Positions 20,421-61,034 of a stretch of 64,000 bases of DNA are shown piece after piece; positions within the stretch are counted from its first letter, which is position 1; each line of letters opens with the position of its first letter. The notes beneath the pieces are model-generated. The model did not search any database. It saw only the letters and a list, made by a program, of their open reading frames with translations, and had not been told where the DNA came from. This DNA comes from an uncultured Armatimonadetes bacterium. GTDB taxonomy: Bacteria > Armatimonadota > Hebobacteria > Hebobacterales > Hebobacteraceae. The position numbers and the translations under genes are program-made. The DNA is taken from contig OY970296.1 in the NCBI GenBank assembly GCA_963716175.1, positions 3,424,001 through 3,488,000 on the forward strand, given 5' to 3'.

Positions 20421-21172
20421 TGGAGGTCATCCCTGCCATTGACCTGCGGGGCGGGAGATGCGTGCGGCTGGTGCAGGGGGACTATAATCGCGAGACCGTA
20501 TTCAGTGATGACCCTGCGGCGATGGCCAGGCATTGGGAGGAGCAAGGCGCGCGCCGGCTCCACATCGTGGATCTGGATGGCGCGCGGCAGGGTGAGCCGC
20601 GGAACCTGGAGGCGGTGGAGCAGATCGCGCGGGCGGTGAGCATCCCGGTGCAGCTTGGCGGCGGGATGCGAGATGAGGCGACCGCGCGCCGGGCGTTGGC
20701 GCTGGGCGTGGAGCGCGTGATCATCGGCACCGCGGCCCTCGACCGCACCGCGGCGCGGCGGATGATCGAGGTGCTGGGCGACGCCGTGGTGGCCGGGATA
20801 GATGCGCGGGAGGGCCGAGTGGCAGTGCGAGGATGGTTGGAGACAAGCGAGGTCACGGCGGTCGCGCTGGCGCGCGAGCTGACGGCCCTGGGAGTGCGCT
20901 GGATCGTGTTCACCGACATCGGCCGGGACGGGGTGCTGGAGGGGCCGAACGTGTCGGCCTTGCGGGAGATGGTGGAGAGCGTGACTGCCCGCGTGATCGC
21001 CTCTGGCGGCATCAGCAGCGTGGAGGATGTGAGAGCGGTGCGAGACGCGGGCGCGGCCGGGGCCATCATCGGCACCGCGCTCTACACCGGCCGCTTGCGC
21101 CTGAAAGAGGCGATGGAGGCGGTGGCTAGGCCCTTCAGGCCGCCATCCCGGCCCGCCGCCGGTGGGACCTAG
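20417..21172 (+). CDS. hisA: ProFAR isomerase (C-terminus extended by inserted hairpin element)
   Basis: [36 protein letters not shown]. Confidence 0.95.
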
Positions 21173-21175
21173 GGA
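21123..21175 (+). mobile_element. 53-nt double TA-bulged hairpin insertion (copy B)
   Basis: TGGC-TA-GGCC..GGCC-GCCA + TCCC-GG..CC-TA-GGGA; removing it restores GGAGG-CGGG-ATG and a hisA stop overlapping hisF. Confidence 0.7.
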
Positions 21176-21176
21176 G

Positions 21177-21965
21177 ATGCTAGCCAAGCGGATCATCTGC
21201 TGCCTGGACGTGGACCGAGGACGAGTGGTGAAGTGCATCAAGTTCCTCGACCCGCGGGACGCGGGCGACCCGGTGGAGATGGCGACCCGGTACAATGACG
21301 AGGGCGCGGATGAGGTGACCTTCCTGGACATCTCCGCTTCTCACGAGGGCCGGCAGACCATGATCGAGGTCGCCTCCCGCACCGCCGAACAGGTCTTCAT
21401 CCCCTTCACCGTGGGCGGGGGCATTCGGACGGTAGATGATTTCCGTGCCGTGCTCAGGACGGGCGCGGACAAGGTCGGGGTGAACACAGCCGCGATCAAG
21501 CGGCCCGAGCTGATCACGGAGGCCGCCGAGCGCTTCGGCGCGCAGTGCGTGGTGGTCTCCATTGATGCCAAGAGGCGGAGCGACGCGCCGGCCAGAAGCC
21601 CGCGGTGGGAGTGCTACGTGAACGGAGGCCGCACGCCGACGGGAGTGGACGCACTGGAGTGGGCGATCAGAGTTGAGGAACTGGGCGCGGGCGAGATTCT
21701 GCTGAACAGCATTGACGCCGACGGCACCATGCAGGGCTACGATATCGAGCTGTGCCGCACTATCGCGGATGCGGTGCGCATCCCCGTGATCGCCTCCGGT
21801 GGCGCCGGCACCCCGGAGCACATCTATCAGGCGCTCACCGAAGGGAGATGCGAAGCGGCCCTGATCGCCAGCATCGCTCACTATTCCACCCACCCCATCG
21901 CCGAGATCAAGCACTACCTGGCGGAGCGGGGGGTGCCGGTGAGGCCGATCGCGCAGGCCGCGTGA
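21177..21965 (+). CDS. hisF: Imidazole glycerol phosphate synthase cyclase subunit
   Basis: [39 protein letters not shown]. Confidence 0.95.
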
Positions 21966-21972
21966 TCGCAGA

Positions 21973-22056
21973 TGTAGGGGCGCGATTCCCGCCACGCGGC
22001 CGGCGGGCAAGCTCTGCGCCCCGCAGGACGTGGGCGGGATGAATCCCGCCCCTACG
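21973..22056. repeat. Inverted REP pair
   Basis: TGTAGGGGCG... and GGGCGGGATGAATCCCGCCCCTAC. Confidence 0.65.
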
Positions 22057-22100
22057 AGAGAACCGCGTCTTGCGAGGGGCCTTCGGCATGGCAACAGGGC

Positions 22101-42809: not shown

Positions 42810-42914
42810 GTAGGGCGGGCACGCCTGTGCGCGCCGAGGCAGGTCGCGTGGCTAGGCCTGCTTTGCAGGCCGCCACCCCGGCCGCCGCAGGCGGCCTAGG
42901 GGGACCTGCCCTAC
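42810..42914. repeat. Inverted REP pair; right REP interrupted by hairpin element
   Basis: GTAGGGCGGGCAC... and GGCAGGTCGCG[54 nt]GACCTGCCCTAC; the REP supplies the kdgK stop codon. Confidence 0.75.
42849..42902 (+). mobile_element. 54-nt double TA-bulged hairpin insertion (copy C)
   Basis: TGGC-TA-GGCCTGC-TTT-GCAGGCC-GCCA + CCCC-GGCCGCC-GCA-GGCGGCC-TA-GGGG; flanks rejoin into the REP seen intact at 392, 15785 and 43926. Confidence 0.8.
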
Positions 42915-44900: not shown

Positions 44901-44901
44901 G

Positions 44902-47071: not shown

Positions 47072-47304
47072 ATAGTGTGCCTAGCGATGTCCCTCCCCTA
47101 CACGCGCCCACAGGCGGGGATAGGGACCCCGCCCGCGGGGGCACACGCAACCCCAACGATCTACCCAAGCCTGCAAGGCCAGGCCCAGCCGTGACAGTTC
47201 CACTGGCCGGCCCGAAGTCCCTCTTGGGGATCGTCCCGAGGACGGGGCTCCCACGCGTGCCCAGAGCGCGGCGGGACTATGGGGGAGGAGACTTCGCTCC
47301 TGCA

Positions 47305-48735
47305 CTACGGACTCTTCTGCTGCAGATACGCGTGTATCGCCCGTGCCGCGCGCTTGGCGTCGCCCATGGCGGCGATCACGGTGCCGGCGTCATTGGCGAT
47401 GTCGCCGCCGGCGAAGACGCCCGGCAGGCTGGTCGCGCCGGTCTCCGGGTCCACGATGAACTTCCCCCACTGGTTCGTCTTCAGCCGCGGCTCGCGCCGC
47501 GCCAGCAGCGGGTTGGGGGCCTGGCTGACCGCCACCACCACGGTGTCGGCTGGGATCACGAACTCGCTGTGGGGCACCGGCACGGGCCGGCGGCGCCCGC
47601 TCTCGTCCGGCTCACCCAGCTCGGAGCGCTGGCATTCCAGCCCGGTCACGTGGCCCTTCTCGTCCCCGAGCATGCGCAGGGGGATGGTCAGCTCCATCAG
47701 GGCCACCCCTTCGTCGAGCGCGTTCTCCACCTCCTCTTTGCGGGCCGGCATCTCGGCGCGGGTGCGCCGATAGACCAGCGTGGACTGCGCCCCCAGGCGG
47801 AGCGCGCTGCGGGCCGAGTCCATGGCGACATTCCCGCCGCCGATGACGATGGCTTTCCTGCCGACCTTGATGGGCGTGCGGTACTCCGGGAACTTGTAGG
47901 CCTTCATCAGGTTGATGCGGGTCAGGAACTCATTGGCGGAATAGACGCCGCCCAGGTTCTCGCCGGGGATGTGAAGGAAGTAGGGGAGGCCGGCGCCGGC
48001 CGCCACGAACACGGCCTCGAACCCCTCTTCGTGGAACAGCTCGTCGAGGGTGATGGTATTGCCCACCAGCACGTTGGTCTCGATCTCCACCCCGAGCCGT
48101 CTCACGTACTCCACCTCGCGGTCGAGGATGGCGCGGGGCAGACGGAACTCGGGAATCCCGTAGCGCAGCACGCCTCCGGGAGCGTGCAGTGACTCGAACA
48201 GCGTGACCCGGTAGCCGAAGCGGGCGAGGTCGGCGGCGGCAGTGAGCCCACCGGGGCCGGACCCGATGACCGCTACTTTGGGTGCGCGGGGCTCCGGCAC
48301 GTGAGGCGGCGGAAGGGGGAGATGGCCTATCTCCCAATCGGCGACGAATCGCTCCAGGGCGCCGATGGCGACCGGCTCGCCCTTTCGCCCCAGGACGCAG
48401 GCGGCCTCGCACTGGGTCTCCTGGGGGCACACCCGGCCGCAGATGGCGGGAAGCGCGTTCTTCTCCTTCAGCACCCGCACCGCCTCCTCGAACCGCTCCT
48501 CGGCCAGGGCGTTGATGAAACCAGGGATGTCAATCTCCACCGGGCAGCCGGGCACACAGCTGGGCCGCTTGCACTGGAGGCAGCGCCTGGCCTCCGACAG
48601 CGCCGCGTCCAGCGCGAACCCCAGCGCGACTTCCTCGAAGTCCCGGGCGCGCGTGCCCGGGTCGCGGCGAGGCAAGGGCTGGCGCGGTGCCTTCGTCGGC
48701 TTCTTGCGAGTGGGGGTTTCGCGGCTCGCGGTCAT
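47305..48735 (-). CDS. nfnB: NfnB/SudA-like GltD-family NADPH-dependent oxidoreductase
   Basis: RCLQC..C..GCP, CGRVCPQETQC, GSGPGG, GGGNVAMD; paired with NfnA-like gene. Confidence 0.85.
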   Translation of the reverse strand: MTASRETPTRKKPTKAPRQPLPRRDPGTRARDFEEVALGFALDAALSEARRCLQCKRPSCVPGCPVEIDIPGFINALAEERFEEAVRVLKEKNALPAICGRVCPQETQCEAACVLGRKGEPVAIGALERFVADWEIGHLPLPPPHVPEPRAPKVAVIGSGPGGLTAAADLARFGYRVTLFESLHAPGGVLRYGIPEFRLPRAILDREVEYVRRLGVEIETNVLVGNTITLDELFHEEGFEAVFVAAGAGLPYFLHIPGENLGGVYSANEFLTRINLMKAYKFPEYRTPIKVGRKAIVIGGGNVAMDSARSALRLGAQSTLVYRRTRAEMPARKEEVENALDEGVALMELTIPLRMLGDEKGHVTGLECQRSELGEPDESGRRRPVPVPHSEFVIPADTVVVAVSQAPNPLLARREPRLKTNQWGKFIVDPETGATSLPGVFAGGDIANDAGTVIAAMGDAKRAARAIHAYLQQKSP

Positions 48736-49598
48736 GGCTTCTCGGGCTTCCCTCCACTCGCCTCCTGCTTGAGGGCCGCGAGCTGCGGGTCCAGCAGGCA
48801 CTGCTCCTCGTCGAAGAAGGCGCGCTTGCGCTTGGCGAGTTCGTCGAAGTCAACCAGGTGGCCATCGAACTCCGGGCCATCCACACAGGCGAACTTGACC
48901 TCCCCCCCGACGGTGACGCGGCAGCCTCCGCACATCCCCGTGCCGTCCACCATGATGGGATCCAGACTCACCAGGGTGGGCAGCCTGTACTCCTTGGTGA
49001 GGGCGCTGGTGGCTCGCATCATGGGGAGAGGGCCGATGGCGATGCAGTAGTCGAGATGCTCTCCCCGTTCGAGCAGGCCCCGCAGCACATCGGTCACCAG
49101 GCCGTGATGCCCGAGAGAGCCGTCGTCGGTGGCGATGTGTAGCTGGCTGCTCAGCGCGCGGATCTCCTCCACGAAGAAGAGCAGATCCCGGCTGCGCGCG
49201 CCGAGGATGGAGATGATCTCGTTCCCGGCCTCCCTGAAGGCCTTGACCTCGGGGTAGATGAGCGCGATCCCCACCCCGCCGGCGACGCAGGCGACGCGGC
49301 CGTATCGCCTCACCTCCGTCGCCTGGCCCAAAGGCCCAAGGATGTCGGTGACGGTCTGACCGACCTCCATCTCAGCCAGGCGACGCGTGGAGTAGCCGGC
49401 GGCCTGAATGACGGTGGTGATCGTGCCCCGCTCGGGGTCATGGTCAGCGACCGTGAGCGGCATCCGCTCGTCTTCTTCCCCGATGCGGAGGATGATGAAC
49501 TGGCCGGCTCTGACCTTGCGGGCCACGCGCGGCGCTCGCATCTCCAACAGCGTCACCGTGGGCGCCAATGCGCGCTTGGATACGATCTCGAAAGCCAT
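48732..49598 (-). CDS. nfnA: NfnA/SudB-like FAD/NAD-binding [2Fe-2S] subunit
   Basis: GQFIILR..ERMPLT, GPLG, MVDGTGMCGGCRV..CVDGPEF. Confidence 0.88.
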   Translation of the reverse strand: MAFEIVSKRALAPTVTLLEMRAPRVARKVRAGQFIILRIGEEDERMPLTVADHDPERGTITTVIQAAGYSTRRLAEMEVGQTVTDILGPLGQATEVRRYGRVACVAGGVGIALIYPEVKAFREAGNEIISILGARSRDLLFFVEEIRALSSQLHIATDDGSLGHHGLVTDVLRGLLERGEHLDYCIAIGPLPMMRATSALTKEYRLPTLVSLDPIMVDGTGMCGGCRVTVGGEVKFACVDGPEFDGHLVDFDELAKRKRAFFDEEQCLLDPQLAALKQEASGGKPEKP

Positions 49599-49740
49599 GG
49601 GCTGCTGCGACCCTCTGGTTTATGATACCCAGTCCCGGCCGGTGCGCGAACCCACTCGGGAGCCCCATCGGGGCTCCCCGGCGGAACGCAAGGCCAGTGA
49701 ATTCGCAGCAGAAAGGCGAGTCTCCTTCTTCCACTCCCGA

Positions 49741-49840
49741 TGGCGTTCGCACGAGGAAGTAATGTGCGAACGCCGCTCTCGGCCCGTCTGAGCAGTTGCC
49801 CGAGCTTCGCCCCGTTACTTCCTTGAGCGAAGCTCAGTAG
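49741..49840 (+). repeat. ~100-bp two-hairpin dispersed repeat, copy 3
   Basis: Aligns with 53370-53469 and the reverse complement of 26171-26271. Confidence 0.85.
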
Positions 49841-49847
49841 TGCGCAG

Positions 49848-50858
49848 CTAGCGCCAGCGCGCGGCCAGGCTCAGGCCGTAGAGAGACTGGGCCACCAGGT
49901 TCTCACCGATCTCCACGGCAACGTGTTCGCCACACATGTTGTGCCCGGCCGCCTGGCCGTGCGCGCTGGCCCGGATCCAGCCATAGCCGTGCGCTCGCTG
50001 TTCGGTGCCGCTGGCCTGAATCTCGGCCACGTCGCCCGCCGCCCAGATCATCTCATCGGTGGTGCGCAGGTGCTCATCGGTGACGACGCCGGCTTCCACG
50101 GCGATTCCCGATCCACTCAGCAGGTTCGTCTCTCCGCGCTGGCCACCCGCGAAGCCGACGATCTCGGCCGGCAGCTCATGGCCCTCCCGCGTCTTGACGG
50201 CCCGCACCCGCCCGGCTCGCCCCACCAGCTCGACGGCCCTGTCCAGCACTAGCACTTTCACACCGTGCTCGGCCAGGATCCGCTCCATGGTCTGCTCGTC
50301 GGTCTGGAAGAGGGGGAGGAACCAAGGGGTGTCATCGGGCACCACGAGCGTTACTTCCAGCCCGCGCAGGCGCAATGCTCGGACCAGCTCGAGCGCTTGC
50401 AGGCCCTGGCCGACGACCACGGCCCGCTTTGCCTGCTCAGCCCAGGCCTTGACCTTCACCGCGTCGGCATAGGCGCTGAAGGTTGTCACCCCCTCCAAGT
50501 CGGCGCCCGGGATCTCCGGCAGCACCGGCCTGGCCCCGGTGGCGATGAGCAGCAGATCATAGGGCACCTCTTCTCTGCTGCTCAGCGAGACAGTTCGTTC
50601 TCGACGGTAGTTCAGCCCCACGGCCTGGCGGCCGAGCATGAGGCTGATGTTCTTGGCGGCGGCCGTGGCTTCGAACTCCAGCCATATGTCCTGATCCTGG
50701 ATGCGGCCGGCCACGAGATCGGCAAGCAAGGGCCGCAGGTAGAAAGGCCGATCTTCCTCGGCGATGAGAGTGATGGGGTCGTCGCGGCGGAGGCCGCGAA
50801 TGGTTTCGGCGGCCTGCATGGCGGCAATGCCGCCCCCGACTATCAGGTAGCGCTGCAT
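49848..50858 (-). CDS. FAD-dependent pyridine nucleotide oxidoreductase (rubredoxin reductase-like)
   Basis: IVGGGIAA, LLIATGA, WAAGDVAE; GGAGG RBS. Confidence 0.85.
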   Translation of the reverse strand: MQRYLIVGGGIAAMQAAETIRGLRRDDPITLIAEEDRPFYLRPLLADLVAGRIQDQDIWLEFEATAAAKNISLMLGRQAVGLNYRRERTVSLSSREEVPYDLLLIATGARPVLPEIPGADLEGVTTFSAYADAVKVKAWAEQAKRAVVVGQGLQALELVRALRLRGLEVTLVVPDDTPWFLPLFQTDEQTMERILAEHGVKVLVLDRAVELVGRAGRVRAVKTREGHELPAEIVGFAGGQRGETNLLSGSGIAVEAGVVTDEHLRTTDEMIWAAGDVAEIQASGTEQRAHGYGWIRASAHGQAAGHNMCGEHVAVEIGENLVAQSLYGLSLAARWR

Positions 50859-51150
50859 CGAGTTCCCTCCCTTGGCCCCCTGGGCCTGATGGGCATCAGG
50901 TCGCCTGATTCGGGCCCTGCCCAGCCCCTCCTGCTGGGCGCGCGTTGGCGATGGTGCGACAGCCGCACGCGTGGTGCGATGAGCGTCCCATGGCAGGCAG
51001 AAATGACGTCCAGGGGCACTCTTCTGGGCCGCCATTCCTAGGCCGGCCCCGTATGTGCCACCGCTGGCACTGCCGGTGGGCAGGAGACGGGACCGGTAGT
51101 GAGAAGGTTTAGGGCGATAGGCTCAGAGGGTAGCGGGAGGGTAGCACTCA

Positions 51151-51887
51151 ATGAGTCCATCGTCTGCCAGACACTTCTCGCGCGCGGCCCTGATGGTCGC
51201 GCTCAGCGGGCTATTTACGTCGGCCTACGCCGGCGCGCCGGATTTCGGGCGGGAACGGGCGGCTCTGGTGCGCCGGCTGCAGAGGCCACACGCCGGCAAT
51301 CCGCGGATCACCAATCAGCGCGTGCTGAGCGCGATCAGCAGGGTGCCCCGGCACCTGTTCGTGGAGCCAGAGCTGCGGGGCGCGCGTATAACGATGAGGA
51401 CATCCCGGTGGGCTCGGGCCAGGTGATGTGCAGCCCCTATGCGGTGGCGCTGATGGCGCAGATGCTCGACCCACACCCAGGGGCGAGGCTGCTCGAGGTG
51501 GGGACAGGGCCGGGGTACTTGACCGCGGTGCTGGCGAGCATCACCCCCCAGGTCTACAGCATTGACCTGAGGCCGGAGCTGGCCAAGGCGGCGGAGGCGC
51601 GGCTGCGCGCCCTGCATTACTCCTCTGTTCGCACCCGGATCGGCAAGGGATGCCAGGGCTGGGCGGAAAACGGGCCCTTCGATGGCATCGTGGTCACCTG
51701 CGCCGCGCAAGAGGTGCCTGAAGCGTTGATCGCGCAGCTCCGGGAGGGAGGCCGCCTGGTGATCCCGATCGGTCACGGGCCGGAGCAGACGCTGAGCTGT
51801 CTGCGCAAGAGCGGCGGGAAGCTGCACGCCTCCGGGACCGTGATGAGGCTTCGGGTGAGCCCCATGCTGTGCCAGGGCGGGCGATGA
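51151..51887 (+). CDS. pcm: Protein-L-isoaspartate O-methyltransferase, frameshifted near 51375-51390, with signal-like N-terminus
   Basis: VPRHLFV in first frame; LEVGTGPGY, GPFDGIVVT, GGRLVIPIG in second frame. Confidence 0.8.
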
Positions 51888-51912
51888 GGGTGCCGGGGGG
51901 CGGCTGCCGCCA

Positions 51913-52791
51913 ATGAACCAGGTTGATCTGTTCGTGTTCGCGGTGGTGGCTGCGTTCTCCCTCTCCGGATACCGTCGTGGGCTGATCTCCTCGGCCGGTG
52001 ACATCATCGCCATCGGGCTGGCGCTGGCCGTGGGATCGGTCGCCTATCCGCCGGCGGCGACAGCCCTGGGCCGGCTCTTCGGTCTGCCCGCGAATGTCTC
52101 AGGGCCCCTGGGGTATCTGGCGGTGGCGGTGGCGGTCGCGCTGGCGACGAGCTGGGGGTGTTCGGCGCTGGCCGCGCGCTTCGAGCCGCCCCGGCGCGTG
52201 AGCCGTGCCGGCGGGGCGGCCTTCGGGGCCGTGCTGGGAATGGTCCTGGCCGGGGTGCTGGTGATGGCCTCCGGCATGGTCCCAAGCCTCGCGGCGCCGG
52301 TGGAGCGATCGGCGCTGGGTCGCAGCCTGGTGCAAGTGGTGCCGCGGCTGCACGAGGGGATGGAATCCATCGGCCTGCCTCTTCCCAAGCTGGTTCAGTT
52401 GCCTACCGACTACCGGGAAGAGGTGCAGGGGATGCGTCAGGGCCTCCAGTTCATGCGGATCAACTTCACGCGTCTGGACGGCGCCACCTGCATCCACTGC
52501 CGTACGCCGGTGGTTTTCGAGGGCTATCGCTTCTCCCGCGGCACGCTGATGTCTCCCAAGTTCCGCTGTCCCAAGTGCGGCCGCACGAGTGATGGCTGCC
52601 AGACCTTTGAGGGGTTCCACGCCATCTACGGCAAGTGCCCGGTGGAGCTGGCCGAGCAGGGGGTCGAGTTCGACTGCGGGGTCTGGACTAACGGGTGGCT
52701 GACCGTGCCCCATGGCCGGTGCCCGGTCTGCGGCCGGGAGCTCAAAGGCGCGGAGGCGGCCCAGACCCACCCTACCGCCGGCTTGCGATGA
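51913..52791 (+). CDS. CvpA-family membrane protein with Cys-rich C-terminal domain
   Basis: GYRRGLI and four TMs; tail with CIHC, CPKC, CPVC and three more Cys. Confidence 0.7.
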   Translation: MNQVDLFVFAVVAAFSLSGYRRGLISSAGDIIAIGLALAVGSVAYPPAATALGRLFGLPANVSGPLGYLAVAVAVALATSWGCSALAARFEPPRRVSRAGGAAFGAVLGMVLAGVLVMASGMVPSLAAPVERSALGRSLVQVVPRLHEGMESIGLPLPKLVQLPTDYREEVQGMRQGLQFMRINFTRLDGATCIHCRTPVVFEGYRFSRGTLMSPKFRCPKCGRTSDGCQTFEGFHAIYGKCPVELAEQGVEFDCGVWTNGWLTVPHGRCPVCGRELKGAEAAQTHPTAGLR

Positions 52792-53245
52792 GCTGTCGCC
52801 AGTCGAAGATCCCGGTGGCGGTGCACCACTCTGGAAAGGTAGCGCGCTTCTCCCTGGCATAGGCCTGGATCAGCTCCAGTCCACCCCGGAGCTGCTCCAA
52901 GGAACGACCAATAGGGCAAGGCAGCCATTCCACCCGGCCGAAGAGCCGGCAGATGAGGGGCCGCACCGGGTAGATGAGGCATCCGCGGCGGGAAACATCA
53001 TGGAAGAGACAGGCCTCGGCCTGGATCTCCTCGAACCAGAAGATAGTCTTCTCCTGCTCCAGTATCCGAACCACCTGGTCTCGATTGGCCTTCCCCAGGT
53101 AGGCGACGATGCTCTCGAACTCGCGCTGGCACATTTGAACCCCTGCGGTGCACCGCAGCCCGCACTCGTGGCAGCCATCGCAAGGGTTCGTGCCCTCGCC
53201 GGGGTGCGCCCGTGGTCCCGGATCGGTCCAGTCGGCCATGATCAT
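52772..53245 (-). CDS. YkgJ-family cysteine cluster protein
   Basis: CDGCHECGLRC, CLF...CLIYPVRPLICRLF. Confidence 0.8.
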   Translation of the reverse strand: MIMADWTDPGPRAHPGEGTNPCDGCHECGLRCTAGVQMCQREFESIVAYLGKANRDQVVRILEQEKTIFWFEEIQAEACLFHDVSRRGCLIYPVRPLICRLFGRVEWLPCPIGRSLEQLRGGLELIQAYAREKRATFPEWCTATGIFDWRQLIASRR

Positions 53246-53369
53246 CGCCACTCCAATATATACCCCCTTGGGGGAGGGAGCAAGGGGAGTGGGATGAAGG
53301 TGGGATGCCTGGCGCATTCGAGGGGGGAAAGAGGACCCTCCCCCCTCGAATCTTCCCCCACCCCTCTAA

Positions 53370-53469
53370 TGATGTTCGCACAACGAAGTAATGTGCGAAC
53401 ATCGCTCTGGGCCCGTCTGAGCAGTTGCCTGAGCTTCGCCCCCTTGTTTCTTTGGGCGAAGCTCAGTAG
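53370..53469 (+). repeat. ~100-bp two-hairpin dispersed repeat, copy 4
   Basis: Aligns with 49741-49840. Confidence 0.85.
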
Positions 53470-53534
53470 ACGGATGGGAGCTCAGACGCGAGGGCCCTGT
53501 TGGCTCTTGTCGCGGAGGGAGGGCTTATGCTAGA

Positions 53535-53801
53535 ATGGCCGCGGTTGGAGACCGGCGAATGCTAATAGTGCTGGTAGTGCTGCAGGTGATCTGTGCCGTC
53601 GGGCTGATCGCGCTCACCGCCGTGACTACTACCAAGAGCGAGCAGGGGGGCTCCGGGCTGGGCGGCTGGGGCACCATCGGGGGCAAGAGCTCGTCCACCA
53701 TCGCGGGCCTGGAGGATCAGCTAGGCCGTCTGACCATGTATGTGGCCATCGCCTTTCTCATCGTCTCTACGCTGGTGGGGATGGTGGCGATGCGGTCCTA
53801 G
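53535..53801 (+). CDS. secG: Preprotein translocase subunit SecG (start may be 53559)
   Basis: Two TMs with Gly-rich linker, followed by tRNA-Leu(GAG), the conserved synteny. Confidence 0.8.
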   Translation: MAAVGDRRMLIVLVVLQVICAVGLIALTAVTTTKSEQGGSGLGGWGTIGGKSSSTIAGLEDQLGRLTMYVAIAFLIVSTLVGMVAMRS

Positions 53802-53832
53802 CTTCGCTCCGGGTTGACCGCTAAGGTCGTGT

Positions 53833-53919
53833 GCCCAGGTGGCGGAATTGGTAGACGCGCTGGCTTGAGGGGCCAGTGGCCGCAAGGCCATGCTGGTTCA
53901 AATCCAGTCCTGGGCACCA
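53833..53919 (+). tRNA. tRNA-Leu(GAG)
   Basis: GCCCAGG/CCTGGGC acceptor, CTGGC-TTGAGGG-GCCAG anticodon arm, long variable arm, TTCAAAT, encoded CCA. Confidence 0.97.
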
Positions 53920-54035
53920 CAGAGTGCGCGGCGGTAGGCTTGGTGCATTCGAAGGGGAAGGCAATCCTTCCCCTTCGATGTCTCACCTGACCCCCCTGCA
54001 ATGTGTCGGGCAGGCCAGGACACATGGTGGGTGGT

Positions 54036-54064
54036 TTGACACCGACAGGCCATTTTGCTAACAT
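54036..54064 (+). promoter_or_regulatory. sigma70 promoter of rplU operon
   Basis: TTGACA-17-TAACAT with extended -10 TG. Confidence 0.6.
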
Positions 54065-54087
54065 AGAGACCCCGGAGAATCATTGCC

Positions 54088-54420
54088 ATGTATGCTGTCG
54101 TGGAGACTGGCGGGAAGCAGTATCGGGTGGCGCCGGATGAGTTGGTGGCGGTGGAGAAGCTCCCTGCGGAGGCCGGGGAGGTGATCGAGCTCGACCGGGT
54201 GGCCCTGCTGGAGGTGGACGGGCGAGTGCAGGTGGGAACGCCGTGGGTGGAGGGAGCGAAGGTGACCTGCCGCGTGGTCTCTCACGGCCGGGGCCGCAAG
54301 GTGGACGTGTTCACCTACAAGGCGAAGAAGAACTACAAGCGGAAGCTGGGCCATCGCCAGCCCTACACCCAGCTCATGGTAGAGAAGATCTCGGTAGGCG
54401 CGGTGGAGAAGGAGGCTTGA
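54088..54420 (+). CDS. rplU: 50S ribosomal protein L21
   Basis: [21 protein letters not shown]. Confidence 0.97.
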
Positions 54421-54421
54421 G

Positions 54422-54679
54422 ATGGCACATAAGAAGGGAGTTGGCAGCTCACGCAACGGTCGGGACAGCCAGCCTAAGCGATTGGGCGTGAAGGTTTTCG
54501 CAGGCAGCCTGGTGCCGGCGGGCAGCATCATCGTGCGCCAGCGGGGGACGCCCATTCGGCCCGGCCGGAATGTGGGCCTGGGCCGCGACGACACCTTGTT
54601 CGCCAAGGTGGAGGGGGTGGTGGAGTTCGGCGGCAGCGCCGGCCGACGCCAAGTTCACGTGATCCCGGTCGCGCCCTAG
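54422..54679 (+). CDS. rpmA: 50S ribosomal protein L27
   Basis: [24 protein letters not shown]. Confidence 0.97.
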
Positions 54680-54689
54680 GAGCCCCGGC

Positions 54690-55984
54690 GTGACGGCCTC
54701 TGCGGGCCGCGCGGTCTTTGTTGACGAAGCCGAGATTGAGGTGAAGGCTGGCGGCGGCGGTGACGGCATCGTCAGCCTTCGGCACGAGAAGCACGTTCCC
54801 AAGGGTGGGCCGGATGGCGGCGATGGCGGCCGGGGTGGAGATGTGGTGGCGGCCGCTGACCCGCACCTGCGCACTCTCGTCGATCTTGCCCATCGGCGCC
54901 ACTACCGCGCGGAGGATGGCGGCCGGGGGGGCCCAACCGCCGTCGCGGCAAGAACGGCGCCAACCTCGAGATCCACCTGCCTGTTGGCACGGTCATCCGC
55001 CGGGTATCGGACGGCGTGGCCGTCGCCGATCTTGTCCGGCCAGGCGAGCACGTGGTATTAGCTCGCGGCGGGCGCGGCGGGCGGGGCAACGCGCACTTCG
55101 CCAGCGCCATCCGGCCCACTCCGCGGTTCGCGGAGAAGGCCGAGCCCGGCCAGGAACTGCGGCTCTTTCTCGAGCTGAAGCTGCTGGCTGATGTGGGCGT
55201 CATCGGGCTGCCGAATGTCGGCAAGTCCAGCCTGATCGCGCGGGTCTCGGCGGCCCGGCCCAAGATCGCGGACTATCCCTTCACCACCCTGGTGCCGAAC
55301 CTGGGGGTGGTCAAGCTGGAGGAGGGGTCGAGTTTCGTGATCGCAGACTTGCCCGGCCTGGTGGAGGGGGCGCACTCGGGGGCCGGGAGAGGGCACGATT
55401 TCCTGCGCCATGTGGAGCGCACCAGAGTGCTGATCCACATGCTCGACGTGACTGCGCCGGACCGCGATCCGCGCCACGATTTCGAGGTGGTCAACACCGA
55501 GCTGGCGCTGTACGATACGGAGCTGGCAGGGCGGCCGCAGCTGGTCGCGCTCAACAAGATGGACTTGCGGCCGGACCCGGAGAAGCTGGCGGAGCTGGAG
55601 TCTTCGCTGCAGGCGGAGGGCTACTTCGTGTTCCGCATCTCCGCCCTCACCGGGGAGGGGTTGAGACCACTGATGGGGGCCGCCTCCCGGCTGCTGCCCG
55701 AGATGTCGGCACCGGCCCCGGCCGAGCCCGCGGTCGCGGCCCGGGCTGCGCCGACCAGGCCCGAGCGGCCAAGAGTGAACCAGGTGAGTCCGGGGCGCTT
55801 CGAGGTGCTGGGCGAGGCGGTCGAGCGCGCCGTCATTATGACCGACCTCGACAATCAGGAGGCGGTGCGCCACCTGCACCGGCGCCTTTCCGCCATGGGA
55901 GTGATCCGCCGCCTGCGGGAGCTGGGGGCGAAACAGGGCGACCGGGTGCGGATCGGAACGGTGGAGCTGAACTTCGAGGAGTGA
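54690..55984 (+). CDS. obgE: GTPase ObgE, frameshifted in G run 54925-54931
   Basis: [39 protein letters not shown]-terminal OCT domain. Confidence 0.93.
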
Positions 55985-55993
55985 GGAGGCAGG

Positions 55994-57256
55994 ATGGCCA
56001 CCGGAGTCATTGCCGAGGTGGTGGAGAAGGCAAAGCGGGCCCGCCAGGCGGCGGCGCGGCTGGCCGCGTTCTCTCGCGCCCAGAAGGATGCGGTGCTGCT
56101 GGCCATGGCCGATGTGCTCGAGCGCAACGCGGCTGCTATCCTGGAGGCGAACGCACGGGATGTGACGCAGGCTCAGGAGCGGGGGATGTCGGCGGCCCCG
56201 ATTGACCGGCTGATTCTGAATGAGAAGCGGATCGGGGAAATGGCCGAGGGGCTGCGCACGGCGGCCCGCCTCACTGACCCGGTCGGGGAGATTATCGGCG
56301 GCTGGCGCCTGGCCAACGGGCTGGAGATCACGAAGGTGCGCGTGCCTCTGGGCGTGGTCGGGATTATCTACGAATCGCGCCCCAATGTCACCGTGGATGC
56401 GGCCGGACTCTGCCTGAAGTCGGGCAATGCGGTGGTGCTCCGCGGGGGCTCGGATGCCATTCACTCCAATGTCGCCCTGGCCAACTTGCTGAACGAAGCG
56501 GGCCTCCCTGCAGGGCTGCCGGAGGGTGCGCTCTCGATCATCGAGAGCACCGACCGGGAGGCGGTGGGACAGCTCATGCGGCTGGACCGGTATCTGGATG
56601 TGCTGATCCCGCGGGGCGGAGGCGACCTGATCCGCCGGGTGAAGCAGGAGTCCACCATCCCCGTGATCGAGACCGGGGAGGGGGTCTGTCACGTCTACCT
56701 CGACGCCTCGGCCGACGTGGCCCAGGCCGAGGCCATCGTGGTCAATGCCAAGTGCCAGCGCCCCGGGGTCTGCAACGCGGCGGAGACGCTGCTGGTACAC
56801 CAGCGGGTGGCCGCCGATCTGCTGCCCAGGATCGGCCACCGGCTCACCGAGCTGGGGGTTGAGCTGCGAGCCTGCGAGCGCTCTCTTCCCTATCTGGAGG
56901 GCGCGAAGGCGGCGGAGGAGGAGGACTGGTCAACCGAGTACCTGGCCCTGATCCTGGCGGTCAAAGTTGTGGACAGCCTGCAGGAGGCGATCGCACACAT
57001 CAACTACTATGGCACCCATCATTCCGACGCCATCGTCACCCGCGATCTGGAGAGCGCGCGCCGCTTCGGCCAGGAGGTGGACTCGGCCGTAGTCTATGTG
57101 AACGCCTCCACCCGGTTCACGGATGGCGGCGAGTTCGGCTTTGGCGCCGAGATCGGGATCAGCAACCAGAAGCTGCACGCCCGCGGCCCCATGGGGCTGG
57201 CGGAGCTCACCAGCTACAAGTACGTGGTCTATGGCGAGGGGCAGGTGAGGGCATAG
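55994..57256 (+). CDS. proA: Gamma-glutamyl phosphate reductase
   Basis: IYESRPNVT, GVCNAAETLL, NASTRFTDG, KLHARGPMG. Confidence 0.96.
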   Translation: MATGVIAEVVEKAKRARQAAARLAAFSRAQKDAVLLAMADVLERNAAAILEANARDVTQAQERGMSAAPIDRLILNEKRIGEMAEGLRTAARLTDPVGEIIGGWRLANGLEITKVRVPLGVVGIIYESRPNVTVDAAGLCLKSGNAVVLRGGSDAIHSNVALANLLNEAGLPAGLPEGALSIIESTDREAVGQLMRLDRYLDVLIPRGGGDLIRRVKQESTIPVIETGEGVCHVYLDASADVAQAEAIVVNAKCQRPGVCNAAETLLVHQRVAADLLPRIGHRLTELGVELRACERSLPYLEGAKAAEEEDWSTEYLALILAVKVVDSLQEAIAHINYYGTHHSDAIVTRDLESARRFGQEVDSAVVYVNASTRFTDGGEFGFGAEIGISNQKLHARGPMGLAELTSYKYVVYGEGQVRA

Positions 57257-57284
57257 CAGCAGCTCGTCGAGCCCGGATGAGGCG

Positions 57285-57920
57285 ATGACAGAAGCTGTCG
57301 GGATCATGGGAGGAACCTTCGACCCCGTCCACTTCGGCCACCTGGTGGCCGCGGAGGAGGCGCGGGTGCGATTCTCTCTGGGCCGGATCGTCTTCGTGCC
57401 CAATGCCGACCCGCCGCACAAGAAGGCGTACCCGGTGACCCCGGCCGAGCGCAGACACGAGATGGTGGTGCTCGCCACCGCCTCCAACTGCCACTTCGAG
57501 GCCTCTCGCATCGAGCTCGATCGCTCCGGCCCCTCCTACAGCGCTGACACCATGCGCTCTTTCCGGGAGCAACTGGGCAGCCAGACCAAGCTCTATTTCA
57601 TCACCGGGGTGGACGCGATTCTGGAGATATTGAACTGGCACCAGCCCGAGCAACTGGCACAGCTCTGCGAGTTCATCGCGGTCACCCGCCCGGGGTATCA
57701 ACCCCAGCGCCTGGAGGCGGTGTTGAGCAGGCAGTTCCTGGCCCGCACTCACCTGCTCCACATCCCGGGCCTGGCCATCTCCTCCACGGAGCTGCGTCAG
57801 CGGGCCGGGGCGGGGGAATCGCTGCGCTATCTGACTCCGCTGCCGGTGGTGCGCTACATCGCGGCTCATCAGCTCTATCAGCGGCAGGGCGCAGCCGAGC
57901 GAGCCGCGTGCGGCGGGTGA
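57285..57920 (+). CDS. nadD: Nicotinate-nucleotide adenylyltransferase
   Basis: GGTFDPVHFGH, PPHK, ISSTELR. Confidence 0.95.
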   Translation: MTEAVGIMGGTFDPVHFGHLVAAEEARVRFSLGRIVFVPNADPPHKKAYPVTPAERRHEMVVLATASNCHFEASRIELDRSGPSYSADTMRSFREQLGSQTKLYFITGVDAILEILNWHQPEQLAQLCEFIAVTRPGYQPQRLEAVLSRQFLARTHLLHIPGLAISSTELRQRAGAGESLRYLTPLPVVRYIAAHQLYQRQGAAERAACGG

Positions 57921-57935
57921 GCCGAGGGAGAGACC

Positions 57936-59141
57936 GTGTCCGTTATCGCCCGAAGAAGAAGCGCGGGGAGCGGCCATGCCATCGTCTTCAAGTGGTGGTG
58001 GCTGATCTGGGCGGCTGCCGGGGCCTGCACCTTCCTCTGCGGGGCCGCCCTGGGCGTTGTCTCGTCCGGGGGGGCCGGGGGCGGGGGTGGGTGGTTCAGC
58101 CAGCTCTTGAGTCCACCCTTTGGGGGCCGCGACCGAGTCACCATCCTCATGGTGGGCGCAGACAGCTCTACCGGGCTGGGGCTTGCCGACACCATCATCG
58201 TGGTCGTGGTCAGCCCGCGTACGGGTGAGATCTCTGCGCTCTCCATTCCCCGAGACTGCCGGGTCGAGGTGCCGGGGGTGGGGGTGCGCCGGGTGAACGC
58301 CTCCCACTCGCTGGGCGGCATGCCACTCACCATCCAGACGGTGGAGCTGCTGCTGGGCCTTCCCATTGACCATTACATCGAGGTGAACGTACCAGGCATC
58401 GTGCACCTGGTGGACGCCATTGGCGGCGTGGACATAGACGTGGAGAAACGGATGTACTACCGCGACCGCTCGCAGGATCTGCTCATTGACCTTCAGCCCG
58501 GCCTGCAGCACCTGACTGGTATGCAGGCCATGGGCTATGTCCGCTTCCGCCACGACGCCACCGGAGATATTGGCCGGATGGAGCGCCAGCAGCATTTCCT
58601 GCGGGCCGTGATCCGCCAGCTGATGGCTCCCAGCAACGTGGCGCGCCTGCCCAAGCTGGCGCAGGCTTTCGTCGAGATGGTCAACACGGATCTGAGCGTG
58701 CGCGATCTGCTGTCCTTCAAGAAGCTGGTAGAGCAGAACGGGCCGGAGGCGATCCGCGCTGAAGCCCTGCCGGGCGAGCCCAAGATGATCCACGGGCAGA
58801 GCATGATCGAGCTCGACCCGGTGCAGGTGAAGCAGGCCGTGGACCGGGTGCTGCGAGGTCAGGGGTTGGCGGTGCAGGTGCTGAATGGCACCAGTGTCAG
58901 CGGCCTTGGGGCGAAGGTGGCGTCCGTGCTGGAGGAGGCCGGGTGTGAGATCACGGAGGTGGGGAATGCGGCCGAGCAGAGCGAGACCACGGTGATCGTA
59001 GATCATCGGGGGCGGGCTCGCCGGGCGGAGCGGGTGGCGGATTGGCTGGGTAAAGGGGTGATCTCGGTGCAGCCGGATGGGCAGAATCCGGCGGATGTCA
59101 CCGTGATCGTCGGGCGCGACCTGGTGGGCCGAGAGCGATGA
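57936..59141 (+). CDS. LCP family protein with LytR C-terminal domain
   Basis: DTI, LSIPRD, VRFRHD..DIGRMERQ, VQVLNGT. Confidence 0.9.
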   Translation: MSVIARRRSAGSGHAIVFKWWWLIWAAAGACTFLCGAALGVVSSGGAGGGGGWFSQLLSPPFGGRDRVTILMVGADSSTGLGLADTIIVVVVSPRTGEISALSIPRDCRVEVPGVGVRRVNASHSLGGMPLTIQTVELLLGLPIDHYIEVNVPGIVHLVDAIGGVDIDVEKRMYYRDRSQDLLIDLQPGLQHLTGMQAMGYVRFRHDATGDIGRMERQQHFLRAVIRQLMAPSNVARLPKLAQAFVEMVNTDLSVRDLLSFKKLVEQNGPEAIRAEALPGEPKMIHGQSMIELDPVQVKQAVDRVLRGQGLAVQVLNGTSVSGLGAKVASVLEEAGCEITEVGNAAEQSETTVIVDHRGRARRAERVADWLGKGVISVQPDGQNPADVTVIVGRDLVGRER

Positions 59142-59536
59142 GGTCGCGCGCGCGCCGAGTGGTTCCCGAGGCCAAGCCGCTGGCGACTGAGGAGAAGCTG
59201 GCCGTGGCCGAGAGCGCGCTGGTGGACCATCGCGCGGTGGACCCGGTGCGGCTCGACATGAGAGCGGTGACCTTGATCACCGATTACTTCGTGATCTGCC
59301 ACGGCACCTCGAGCGTGCATATCCGGGGGTTAGCCGACGCGGTGGTGGAGGCCCTGGAGCAGTTGGGCCTGCGTGCCAGCGGGGTGGAGGGACATCGGGA
59401 GGCGCGGTGGATTCTGCTCGACTACGGCGATGTGGTGATCCACATCTTTGCGGAGGAGGAGCGCAGCTTCTACGACCTGGAGCGGCTCTGGAGTGATGCT
59501 CCTCAGGTCGCCATTGCCGCGCCGGAGCAGCAATGA
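59138..59536 (+). CDS. rsfS: Ribosome silencing factor
   Basis: DYFVIC, WILLDYGDVVIHIF..R.FYDLERLW. Confidence 0.95.
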   Translation: MRSRARRVVPEAKPLATEEKLAVAESALVDHRAVDPVRLDMRAVTLITDYFVICHGTSSVHIRGLADAVVEALEQLGLRASGVEGHREARWILLDYGDVVIHIFAEEERSFYDLERLWSDAPQVAIAAPEQQ

Positions 59537-60234
59537 CCACACCCGAGCAGCCATCGCATATGGAGATCCAGAGCAAGCTGCGCGAGCTGTTGGGGCGCGC
59601 TACCCTGGCCCGCACGCGGCGGCAATGGGAGCAAGCGCTCAAGCTGGTGCAGGAGGCGATCGCGCTCGATGAGAGCAGCGCCGAGGCGCATGAGCTGCAG
59701 GGCGATCTGCTGCTGGAGCTGAAGCGAGGCGCGGAAGCCATGGGGAGCTTCCGCCGCGCCCGGGAGCTGCGGCCCAGCCGCGCCCTGCTGGAGGAAAAGA
59801 TCGCCCGCGCCGCGCTGCAGCAGGCGGCCCGGCAGCAGCGCATCGAGCTCTCTCAGGCCATCCTGGAAGGACGGGTCAAGCCCGCGTCAAAACGCAGCCC
59901 GGGCTACGCGGCGGTGCTGTCACTCATGTTGCCCGGCCTGGGCCAGTTCTACAATGGTGAGGTGGTGAAAGGGCTGGTCATGCTCACGGCCTACGTATTC
60001 CTGCTCGCCCTCGCCCTGCTGGCCGTGCTGCGCGGGATCGCCACCAGCCCCTCGGCGGCCGGGGGCGGCCTGTTCGGACAGGAGATAAACGTGGGCGCCA
60101 TCTTCTCGGGTCTCTCGTCCGGAGGCACCACGCTGGTCAGCGTTCTGCTGGTGGTGCTCTGGCTCTACGGGATTGGCGACGCGGCCTGGCGCGCCAGCAA
60201 GACTCTGACCTCGGATGAGACCGGCCTGGTGTGA
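59533..60234 (+). CDS. TPR-containing membrane protein
   Basis: N-terminal TPR-like helices; LSLMLPGLGQFYNG then TMs. Confidence 0.7.
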   Translation: MTTPEQPSHMEIQSKLRELLGRATLARTRRQWEQALKLVQEAIALDESSAEAHELQGDLLLELKRGAEAMGSFRRARELRPSRALLEEKIARAALQQAARQQRIELSQAILEGRVKPASKRSPGYAAVLSLMLPGLGQFYNGEVVKGLVMLTAYVFLLALALLAVLRGIATSPSAAGGGLFGQEINVGAIFSGLSSGGTTLVSVLLVVLWLYGIGDAAWRASKTLTSDETGLV

Positions 60235-60244
60235 GGTGGGAGAG

Positions 60245-60868
60245 ATGAGCGAGGCGATGGATGAGCTGCGGGAAGTGCCTCTGGGCAAAGCAGTCATTCT
60301 GCCGGAGCCGCGCGTGAGAGGGACGATGTCAGTGGAGGAAGCGATCCAGCGCCGACGCAGCACGCGCGGCTTCACCTCCGATCCGCTCGACCTGGCTGCT
60401 ATCTCTCAGCTCCTGTGGTCAGCCCAGGGTCTCACCTCGCCCGAGGGGCTGAGGGCTGCGCCCTCGGCCGGCGCACGCTATCCGCTGGAGGTGTATCTGG
60501 CGTGCGCGGCCGGGCTGTTTCGCTATCAGGGTCGCGATCACTCTCTGTTGAAGGTGCGGGGGGCCGATCTGCGCGGTCAGCTTGCGGAGGCCGCACTGGG
60601 CCAGAGCTTCGTGGCGGAGGCCCCGATCGCGCTGGTGTTCGTGGCCATCTACGAGCGCACTACCAGCCGTTATCGCGACCGAGGCATTCGCTACGTGCAT
60701 ATTGACGTGGGGCATGCCGCGGAGAACGTGCATTTGCAGGCCGAGGCCCTGGGCCTGGGGTCCTGTGCGGTGGGGGCGTTTGACGATGCCGCGGCGGCCC
60801 GGGTCCTGCACTTGCCAGACGACCAGAAGCCGCTCTACCTCATCCCGGTAGGCCGGCCGAGCGGTTGA
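60245..60868 (+). CDS. SagB/ThcOx-type nitroreductase family protein
   Basis: RRSTR, LSQLLW-like segment, APSAGARYPLE, GHAAENV. Confidence 0.88.
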   Translation: MSEAMDELREVPLGKAVILPEPRVRGTMSVEEAIQRRRSTRGFTSDPLDLAAISQLLWSAQGLTSPEGLRAAPSAGARYPLEVYLACAAGLFRYQGRDHSLLKVRGADLRGQLAEAALGQSFVAEAPIALVFVAIYERTTSRYRDRGIRYVHIDVGHAAENVHLQAEALGLGSCAVGAFDDAAAARVLHLPDDQKPLYLIPVGRPSG

Positions 60869-60956
60869 CCGGCCCTCCCTGCAAAGCTACAATTAGGGGC
60901 GGCGCCCCTGTGGCCAAGTGGATAAGGCGCAGGCCTCCGGAGCCTGAACCGCAGGT
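60861..60956 (+). repeat. 96-bp direct repeat copy 1 (promoter + tRNA-Arg 5' part)
   Basis: Matches 61317-61412 with one mismatch; contains TTGACC-17-TACAAT. Confidence 0.95.
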
Positions 60957-61034
60957 GGCTAGGCCCGAAGGGCCGCCATGGCGGTCCCCGCGAGCGGGGA
61001 CCTAGCCATTCGCATCCCGCCAGGGGGCCAGCCA
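60904..61034 (+). pseudogene. tRNA-Arg(CCG) copy interrupted in the T-arm, with divergent 3' end
   Basis: First 52 nt identical to intact tRNA; 53-nt insertion after GCAGG; then TTCGCATCCCGCCAGGGGGCCAGCCA vs TTCGAATCCTGCCAGGGGTACCA. Confidence 0.85.
60956..61008 (+). mobile_element. 53-nt double TA-bulged hairpin insertion (copy A)
   Basis: TGGC-TA-GGCCC-GAA-GGGCC-GCCA + TGGC-GGTCCCCGC-GA-GCGGGGACC-TA-GCCA. Confidence 0.8.

Follow-up and report, generated by a model that had tools for sequence, protein, structure and literature searches.

A family of short paired hairpins, which we call doublets, is dispersed through the genome of an uncultured Armatimonadetes bacterium of the Hebobacteraceae, and we regard it as very probably a real family of mobile elements. 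Three copies lie in a stretch of 64,000 nucleotides (GenBank assembly GCA_963716175.1, contig OY970296.1, positions 3,424,001 to 3,488,000 of the forward strand; hereafter the window, numbered from its first base) within a genome (G000) that consists of one contig, 4.56 Mb long and with 66% G+C. A doublet is 42-60 nt long and reads TGGC-TA-GGYC..GRCC-GCCA followed by N4-GG..CC-TA-n4, where N4 is TGGC, TCCC, or CCCC. Both hairpins are built of a basal stem of 4 bp, a bulge of two bases (TA) on the outer strand, and an upper stem that varies. The second is an inverted form of the first, with its bulge on the 3' instead of the 5' side, so that the doublet is nearly identical on both strands. The explanation that we prefer, with slightly better than even confidence, is that doublets are non-autonomous elements inserted in trans by an enzyme whose substrate is folded single-stranded DNA, and that they have spread in part inside repetitive extragenic palindromes (REPs). 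The window copies, with their scores against a covariance model of the family, are as follows.

21123..21175, plus strand: doublet copy 1, TGGC/TCCC type, 53 nt, within the final codons of hisA; 54.4 bits
42849..42902, plus strand: doublet copy 2, TGGC/CCCC type, 54 nt, inside a REP loop; 69.5 bits
60956..61008, plus strand: doublet copy 3, TGGC/TGGC type, 53 nt, two-fold symmetric; 61 bits

Architecture, covariation, and family size

An earlier note on this DNA had described these three copies as sharing an architecture and lengths of 53, 54, and 53 nt and as each following a G, and all of this holds at the positions listed. Unit 1 of the window copies is TGGC-TA-GGCC(loop)GGCC-GCCA, and the N4/n4 pairs of unit 2 in copies 1, 2, and 3 are TCCC/GGGA, CCCC/GGGG, and TGGC/GCCA, respectively. 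As folded single strands, copies 2 and 3 form exactly the two bulged hairpins (z of -3.1 and -2.0), and when its flanks are included copy 2 forms a three-way junction that takes in the stem of the REP. The second hairpin of copy 1 has decayed, and the fold of this copy is no better than those of shuffled sequences (z of +0.55).

The pattern of unit 1, TGGCTAGGCC-N3-14-GGCCGCCA, has 57 matches in the genome, versus 0 for a reversed control; the 10-mer alone is not enriched in the window (7 matches with at most 1 mismatch, 6.9 expected). A tolerant regular expression produced 123 strand hits, which resolve into 101 distinct doublets of 42-60 nt once 3 spurious rows are dropped. The covariance model, built from 30 copies of which 7 come from other phyla, gave at least 144 strand matches at E<=0.01 when the best 150 of 11,660 first-look candidates were scored. 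These matches fall in about 113 places, so the genome scan that the earlier note had proposed did find further copies. Perfect hairpins with a two-base bulge occur genome-wide 193 times per 75,261 dinucleotides when the bulge is TA and 178 times per 162,200 when it is AT, and the feet of the TA-bulged hairpins are TGGC (75), CCCC (23), and TCCC (15).

Conservation of structure extends across the family. In the 30-copy alignment 97.7% of pairing cells are paired, compared with 86.8% after shuffling, and changes on both sides of a pair number 58 cells against 15.5 expected; neither value was reached in 500 shuffles. Sliding the partners by 1-3 columns leaves only 24-52% of cells paired. Among the 101 genomic copies the unit 1 foot is TGGC/GCCA in 88, the bulge is TA in 94 and 95 for the two units, and the basal stem of unit 2 is TCCC/GGGA in 35, TGGC/GCCA in 27, and CCCC/GGGG in 24; the covariation of this stem first noticed in three copies thus persists both in the alignment and across the genome. 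The upper stems comprise 25-28 distinct arms with a mean paired length of 4.3-4.5 bp, versus 2.7-3.0 in chimeric controls. The doublets at the tRNA-Arg locus of G000 and of its relative G011 are clearly the same insertion, and they differ in a foot (TGGC/GCCA versus CGGC/GCCG) and in an upper stem (CCCCGC/GCGGGG versus CTCCGC/GCGGAG), the changes being paired in both. These results show that the hairpins are maintained by compensatory change, and they support the earlier description of non-autonomous mini-elements with a conserved two-hairpin architecture.

The lengths of the 101 doublets favor multiples of three, with a remainder of 0 in 62, 2 in 29, and 1 in 10, a bias that may reflect selection on intragenic copies or the step size of stem changes. 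No Rfam family matches the doublets: apart from the interrupted tRNA described below the best E-value is >=0.2, and the two tRNAs of the window alone pass. Neither Rfam nor the open-access literature, at the level of what search listings display, yielded a description of the family. Literature matches to the string TGGCTAGGCC, among those listed, are mostly studies of humans and other eukaryotes, several of them on mitochondrial DNA.

Precise insertion at sites with an empty counterpart

The earlier note had named an empty target for each window copy, namely the hisA-hisF junction, a REP, and a tRNA T-arm, and all three targets are real. The features needed to describe them are these.

42838..42914, minus strand: host REP of copy 2, with arms GGCAGGTC (within 42838-42848) and GACCTGCC then CTAC (42903-42914)
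60904..61028, plus strand: interrupted copy of tRNA-Arg(CCG), with a duplicated upstream promoter-like region and a degenerate 3' part (TTCGCATCCCGCC)
61360..61434, plus strand: intact tRNA-Arg(CCG), called by ARAGORN (Rfam 65.8 bits), with the paralogous empty site GCAGG followed by TTCGAATCCTGC

The site of copy 1 is empty in 10 of the 10 same-family relatives that keep the hisA-hisF junction, where hisA abuts the hisF start (...ggaggcggcATG). In G000, 53 nt stand between ggaggcgg and gATG. The base beside the insertion gives ggcggCATG in the relatives and ggcggGATG in the window minus the element, which makes the ancestral base uncertain. The hisA frame (20267..21172) reads through copy 1, gains 16 codons, and stops at the second CTAG of the element, 4 nt before the hisF ATG; the hisA TAG of the relatives overlaps the hisF start.

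Copy 3 is positioned between T-stem and T-loop in a duplicated tRNA-Arg copy that forms a direct repeat with 61318-61410, and 400 bp downstream the intact tRNA-Arg shows the empty T-arm, GCAGG followed by TTCGAATCC. ARAGORN does not call the interrupted copy, and the Rfam tRNA model spans the insert at 25 bits, under its 29-bit threshold. A duplication of one base (T) is possible at this site only.

The host REP of copy 2, whose GTAG tag reads on the minus strand, has an empty form, GGCAGGTCGCGGACCTGCC, with 37 occurrences in the genome. It belongs to one of four REP families that occur both empty and filled, each filled at one fixed loop position. The tally of empty and filled alleles, which had been suggested as a check, is as follows.

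GGCAGGTC-GCG-GACCTGCC REP family: 37 exact empty copies (82 with any 3-nt loop), 6 filled
GGGCGGGCATG-type REP family: 15 empty, 9 filled
GGCGGGG-type REP family: 10 empty, 3 filled
GGCAGGAG-type REP family: 162 empty, 6 filled

Doublets also insert into each other. Sixteen of the 101 are nested in another doublet, always at GC^CA of the 3' foot of its first hairpin, and excising the inner doublet restores a normal outer one. The same GC^CA nesting is seen in records titled Solibacteraceae and Hebobacterum. Arrays of three hairpins may derive from arrays of four by deletion between short direct repeats. Precise insertion without target duplication, as originally claimed, therefore holds at hisA-hisF, at tRNA-Arg, and in four REP families, and on the evidence of these sites and of nesting we conclude, from sequence comparison, that the copies are insertions.

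Target preference

The 101 doublets of the genome divide among five kinds of surroundings.

In loops of tagged REPs: 33 of 101
Nested in another doublet: 16 of 101
Beside other family hairpins: 10 of 101
Between other complementary flanks: 7 of 101
Without a long flank stem: 35 of 101

Complementary flanks occur at 40 of the 101 copies versus 323 of 5000 random positions. The class without a long flank stem includes the tRNA-Arg copy and five tRNA-His copies, and the rest, about 29, lie in unique sequence. The tRNA-His copies form an array at genome positions 1774620-1775533, where five tandem 162-nt repeats follow tRNA-His(GTG); each unit holds a 3' tRNA remnant, a doublet at the border of T-stem and T-loop (GGGGG followed by TTCAAATCC), and about 70 nt of downstream sequence, and the five doublets are identical. 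In a record titled Yanofskybacteria (44% G+C) a doublet sits at the exact center of a perfect palindrome of 18+18 nt. REP loops, T-arms, this palindrome center, and GC^CA show a common target feature, a position that is unpaired in folded DNA.

At the base level the preference is for G or a purine at -1 and for C or a pyrimidine at +1. The junction runs from purine to pyrimidine at 55 of 87 distinct sites (G to C alone at 35) against a background of 0.247, a count inflated by related copies among the 87. A test for intragenic copies by spanning open reading frames (ORFs) has no power in this genome of 66% GC, since it also flags copy 2, which is plainly intergenic.

Two further observations concern individual sites. 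The doublet at genome 3737899-3737953 splits a motif, ..ATCTGCGCAA from TCTGCGGAT.., that is intact near 1263304 and 1652900. At four or more places (about 1763100, 1765950, 4078140, and 3356750) the CTAG of family hairpins has been entered by a short element with AAGCTGTTTCATAACCTTCCCAGG-like ends, so that doublets in their turn serve as a target for another small element.

Distribution among genomes

Presence was counted with the covariance model at E<=1e-4 in the bacterium's own family (f1), in four other families (f2-f5), and in ten further families of the phylum.

f1, without G000: 12 of 14 genomes, none in G003 and G004
f2: 1 of 1
f5: 2 of 2, with 126 strand matches in G018
f3: 0 of 12
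f4: 0 of 1
Ten further families: 0 of 10

The three related families f1, f2, and f5 are thus positive in 15 of 17 genomes, compared with 0 of the 23 genomes from elsewhere in the phylum. Genomes rich in the element are G000, G018, G007, G008, G012, and G002. A search with the exact 25-base pattern, one genome per species, returned 51 stretches, most of them titled Armatimonadota or Candidatus Hebobacteria and some with other labels. The same consensus is found in records from Saccharibacteria (3), Harrisonbacteria (1), Yanofskybacteria (1), and Omnitrophota (1), and in one Solibacteraceae genome with about 4 doublet loci, which places Acidobacteriota among the phyla with doublet records. These cross-phylum copies derive from metagenome bins. 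In the Patescibacteria and other low-GC records the doublet is near-identical to the consensus, and two of the low-GC copies lie in reading frames: a 48-nt copy, in frame, in a holB-like gene and another near the end of a gene for a 562-aa ATPase. The small low-GC genome with the holB copy (G044; L039/L139) has two holB-like genes that are 30% identical, so that the 4.4 kb contig bearing the element may belong to another organism. Viral contigs contributed 1 match only.

Twenty sequencing runs contain the stretch, with no RNA dataset among those listed. Depth in public metagenomes is far above that of the flanks at element positions, for example 854 versus about 5-50 at 60968 in one run. Public contigs listed over 42300-61700 begin or end at copy 2; contigs end inside copies, so that the family is present many times over in those sediment and wetland communities and breaks their assemblies.

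Proposed mechanism and the search for an enzyme

In the mechanism that we propose, a dimeric protein would read both modules of 4-bp foot and TA bulge on folded single-stranded DNA, acting in trans. It would cleave each foot at its outer end and join the doublet into a single-stranded target, which could be exposed as a hairpin loop at a replication fork or in a cruciform. The likeliest such enzyme would be an HUH transposase of the Y1 class, similar to those of IS200 or to REP-associated tyrosine transposases (RAYTs), and RAYT-type enzymes that multiply a REP carrying a doublet would raise its copy number. We consider it probable that this hitch-hiking on REPs contributes to copy number. The identification of the mover with a Y1/HUH enzyme is tentative and falls a good deal short of even confidence, since no link that defines an HUH family was found.

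It was correctly stated in the earlier note that the window encodes no HUH enzyme; elsewhere the genome has five Y1_Tnp genes, open frames of 177-198 codons, four of one type (VVMPDHVHFF) and one of another (VVMPHHYHLL). Each adjoins GTAG-type or GGCAGGAG REPs, which makes them RAYT-like, and many of 20 Y1 loci of relatives have a GTAGGG pair around the gene; any repeats that flank the genes at these loci are GTAGGG or GGCAGGAG REPs. Classical REPs, noted among other places at window 42810-42830, number several hundred in the genome in at least four families, including 363 with GTAGGGC[AG]GG heads and a GTTGGG-headed family that is the one with GGCAGGAG arms and 162 empty copies. Within f1, Y1 hits occur in 10 of the 12 relatives positive by covariance model and in 0 of the 2 negative ones. 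Beside one Y1 gene of G010 there is a REP with a doublet in its loop, which counts in favor of an HUH enzyme. All five doublet-bearing Patescibacteria genomes also have Y1 hits; their proteins (LMPNHYHLL...YIHLNP) differ from the four VVMPDHVHFF proteins of the present genome, so no clade is shared. Apparent solo hairpins are doublets with a decayed partner, and no doublet split around a gene was found in this genome or at the 20 loci.

Several results weigh against this reading. None of the five genomic Y1 genes is flanked by doublets, their flanks being GTAG or GGCAGGAG REPs, and a family hairpin lies near just one of the 20 Y1 loci of relatives, where it is inside the loop of a flanking REP (G010). 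That the Y1 genes are flanked by GTAG REPs and not by doublets leaves the HUH idea neither demonstrated nor excluded. Two positive genomes have no Y1 hit, G001 (a single 3.1 Mb contig with 6 covariance-model matches) and G009 (74% complete, 20 matches), and Y1 hits also occur in 6 of 14 controls. For the co-occurrence with Y1 that the earlier note had proposed to examine, f1 gives the counts above, and in f3 all 12 element-free genomes have Y1 genes. Because kin genomes are not independent, the association counts are in any case overstated. Unlike with IS200/IS605, the left flanks of 50 and of 87 distinct sites share no fixed word of 4-5 nt on the 5' side of the insertion, and the two hairpins are mirror images and not same-sense ends.

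Further observations stand on the same side. Each of the five Patescibacteria genomes has one copy, and an even sample of 401 Patescibacteria genomes contained a true copy in the query genome alone. Homologs of the holB-like gene are only 30% identical to the doublet-bearing gene, too distant to prove an empty allele. Neither excision nor an empty/filled polymorphism was directly seen. Among the contigs listed from four public runs over 42300-61700, none has a joint that skips 42849-42902 or 60956-61008, which bears on polymorphism in neither direction.

A bolder reading is that the doublet is a transposase-orphan, two-fold symmetric double hairpin, recognized purely by the shape of a 4-bp stem with its TA bulge, and would count as mobile DNA of a new kind. 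It would cross between phyla with hardly any change in sequence, as far as low-GC Patescibacteria, Omnitrophota, and Acidobacteriota, and be moved by an enzyme class with no previous link to transposition or by a host enzyme that is widely shared. Integration without duplication into the single-stranded tips of REPs and other hairpins would make it a parasite of another selfish repeat. We consider this doubtful.

Alternative explanations

Movement might require no dedicated transposase if host nucleases break hairpin tips and palindrome centers and the breaks are healed by copying or capture of a doublet from elsewhere, for instance through gene conversion between REPs with common arms or end joining of an excised doublet. 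The doublet subtype does track the REP family, CCCC being found in GGCAGGTC and GGCAGGAG REPs, TGGC in GGGCGGGCATG REPs, and TCCC in GGCGGGG REPs, and upper hairpins appear to have been exchanged as whole modules between similar copies. That G001 keeps copies without a Y1 hit, and that no insertion sequence of the genome among those examined has doublet-like ends, would also agree with this explanation. We nevertheless judge it improbable, as the roughly 29 copies in unique sequence, including those in hisA and in low-GC genes, have no donor arms, the ends are base-identical at all sites with nesting always at GC^CA, and exact conservation across phyla suggests a specific protein partner.

Somewhat less probable still is a double-stranded transposable element of the miniature inverted-repeat kind (MITE) with the termini 5'-TGGCTAGG ... 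CCTAGCCA-3', moved by a DDE transposase with no or very short duplication. TG...CA ends occur in many DDE transposons, and over its whole length the TGGC/TGGC subtype forms an almost perfect inverted repeat. The insertion sequences of the genome include rve/IS481-like, IS110, and IS256-like ones and an integrase, and its rve-type, IS256-type, and IS110-type transposases would fit this reading. Against a MITE, 59 of 101 doublets have ends whose outer four bases do not complement one another (TGGC versus GGGA or GGGG), each pairing instead within its own hairpin, and sites with an empty allele show no duplication. The two IS110-type ends examined bear no relation to the doublet. An IS110-family element of 1.7 kb is present in four copies (782976, 815733, 2787951, and 4047527), each beside a CATCTC-like site at what appear to be gene starts.

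The GIY-YIG gene beside copy 3

The earlier note had suggested that doublets are mobilized by the small protein encoded just behind copy 3.

61036..61296, plus strand: small GIY-YIG gene, an ORF of 86 aa (Pfam GIY-YIG, 60.2 bits)

Such a protein would cut hairpin targets and so move the doublet, and GIY-YIG domains do include structure-specific nucleases. Gene and doublet are found together at tRNA-Arg in four genera, and in G010 the ORF ends in the TAG of the doublet and the unit of gene and doublet is tandemly duplicated. This duplication, which also takes in the 3' part of the tRNA, spans 1417-2190 of L087 (G010) with a 346-nt period. Close homologs in G010, G011, and G007 always adjoin tRNA-Arg(CCG) and a partial tRNA duplication. 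In G010 and G011 the doublet is inserted between GCAGG and TTCGAATCC, and in G007 only the left junction, GCAGG then doublet, is present before the contig ends. The order of the tRNA-Arg, GIY-YIG, and doublet parts varies between genomes.

The proposed co-occurrence does not bear the suggestion out. Homologs are present in 27 of 41 related genomes, including the element-free G003 and G004 and 7 of the 12 f3 genomes, so element and GIY-YIG homing endonuclease do not travel together across genomes, and close orthologs are always tied to tRNA-Arg. The genome has two other small GIY-YIG genes, at 1709080-1709307 and 1652087-1652284, directly behind tRNA-Thr(TGT) and tRNA-Ala(CGC), and neither of these paralogous cassettes has a doublet nearby. 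Behind the GIY-YIG gene at tRNA-Thr, 21 nt of the 3' end of the tRNA are repeated; this remnant begins inside the T-loop, lacking the 5' T-stem, and cannot form a T-arm hairpin. Conversely, the same T-arm position is filled in tRNA-His remnants with no GIY-YIG gene, the element occupies more than 100 sites that lack the gene, and the protein of 86 aa is a bare catalytic GIY-YIG domain.

Mobilization by this protein is accordingly very unlikely, and the claim is set aside. We read the gene as an independent tRNA-targeting cassette and not as part of the doublet; its proximity at tRNA-Arg follows from the T-arm remnant that the cassette leaves, which offers a hairpin target. As an observation in its own right, the small GIY-YIG genes behind tRNA-Arg-CCG, tRNA-Thr-TGT, and tRNA-Ala-CGC, with their repeat of the tRNA 3' end, resemble a tRNA-targeting selfish cassette.

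The tRNA-Arg locus also bears on an RNA-mediated route, in which a transcribed master copy, the promoter-bearing interrupted tRNA-Arg, would be reverse transcribed and inserted. A promoter-like region is duplicated there in G000, TTGACC...TATAAT lies upstream in G011, and the interrupted tRNA-Arg recurs in four genera. No poly-A-like or priming signature and no strand bias of the near-symmetric element came to light, nor did a reverse transcriptase, no search aimed at these having been made. We give this route as little credence as the GIY-YIG protein. Hardly credible at all is a non-mobile conserved structure (a terminator, protein site, or small RNA) placed by descent, since despite its covarying structure and the many intergenic copies near gene ends it is largely refuted by empty sites such as that of hisA in 10 of 10 relatives, by copies inside coding frames, tRNA remnants, and other copies, and by a patchy occurrence across phyla with no Rfam match.

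Comparison with known systems

Several described kinds of element come close to doublets. With REPs and their inverted pairs (REP doublets forming hairpins, REPINs) and associated RAYTs they share short GC-rich bulged palindromes in two inverted units, both of which fold as in a REPIN, as well as high copy number, a non-coding and mostly intergenic position, and maintenance within a lineage. The tetranucleotide GTAG/CGTC is the signature of REPs, and here GTAG belongs to the host REPs; the doublet has instead a foot of TGGC, TCCC, or CCCC with a TA bulge and carries no GTAG/CGTC tag. Unlike in REP-RAYT systems, no cognate Y1 gene is flanked by doublets among the five genes and the 20 loci of relatives. 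GTAG/CGTC REPs are named in the title of PMC3733652, and REPINs are described as vertically inherited in a preprint (bioRxiv 10.1101/2022.05.22.493013). Doublets differ from REPINs in forming a second layer inside REP loops and in recurring nearly unchanged in other phyla.

Elements of the IS200/IS605 group insert without duplication, prefer single-stranded DNA, and have bulged subterminal hairpins that are read as folded single strands. Doublets resemble miniatures of this group in insertion without target duplication, bulged hairpins, and a preference for single-stranded positions. In contrast, they have no fixed 5' target word, their hairpins are the very ends of the element and mirror images of each other, and no autonomous copy with tnpA between doublet ends was found in this genome or at the 20 loci. 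A DDE-type MITE differs in that the ends of a doublet are mutually complementary in 27 of 101 copies only, with no duplication at the sites compared.

Three other systems offer partial parallels. The double-hairpin elements and GC clusters of fungal mitochondria lie between or within genes and are thought to be mobile, with no known enzyme. Doublets are likewise tiny, GC-rich, composed of two hairpins, and found between and inside genes, whereas the fungal elements are organellar, eukaryotic, and unrelated in sequence, and we know of no TA-bulge rule or hairpin-loop targeting for them. The Rickettsia palindromic elements, of about 100-150 nt and confined to one genus, are also small palindromes tolerated in genes, comparable to the 16 codons added to hisA and the in-frame holB-like copy, but they are longer than doublets, belong to a single genus, and do not have the architecture of two bulged hairpins. 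The attC sites of integrons are recognized by the shape of a folded strand with extrahelical bases and not by sequence, as we propose for doublets; unlike attC, doublets were seen with no GTTRRRY core sites, gene cassettes, or integron integrase context.

We file the doublet family as a kind of small non-autonomous hairpin element with unusual traits. It is a doublet of TA-bulged hairpins, it targets hairpin loops, including those of other selfish repeats and of tRNA remnants, it nests within itself at one fixed position, and distant phyla contain near-identical copies of it.

Significance

Few non-coding features of bacterial genomes are as common as REPs and REPINs, whose movement is only partly understood. 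Doublets offer clean material for such questions, with exact boundaries, coexisting empty and filled alleles, nesting at a fixed site, and a hairpin-loop target. That the consensus is kept base for base in several phyla speaks for a specific protein partner. A RAYT-like partner would make the doublets direct evidence for the insertion of DNA into folded targets by such enzymes, and a partner of another kind would mean a new transposition chemistry. For their hosts, doublets add codons and supply stop codons to genes, as in hisA. They also break metagenome assemblies, and they mark a clade of Armatimonadota-like genomes.

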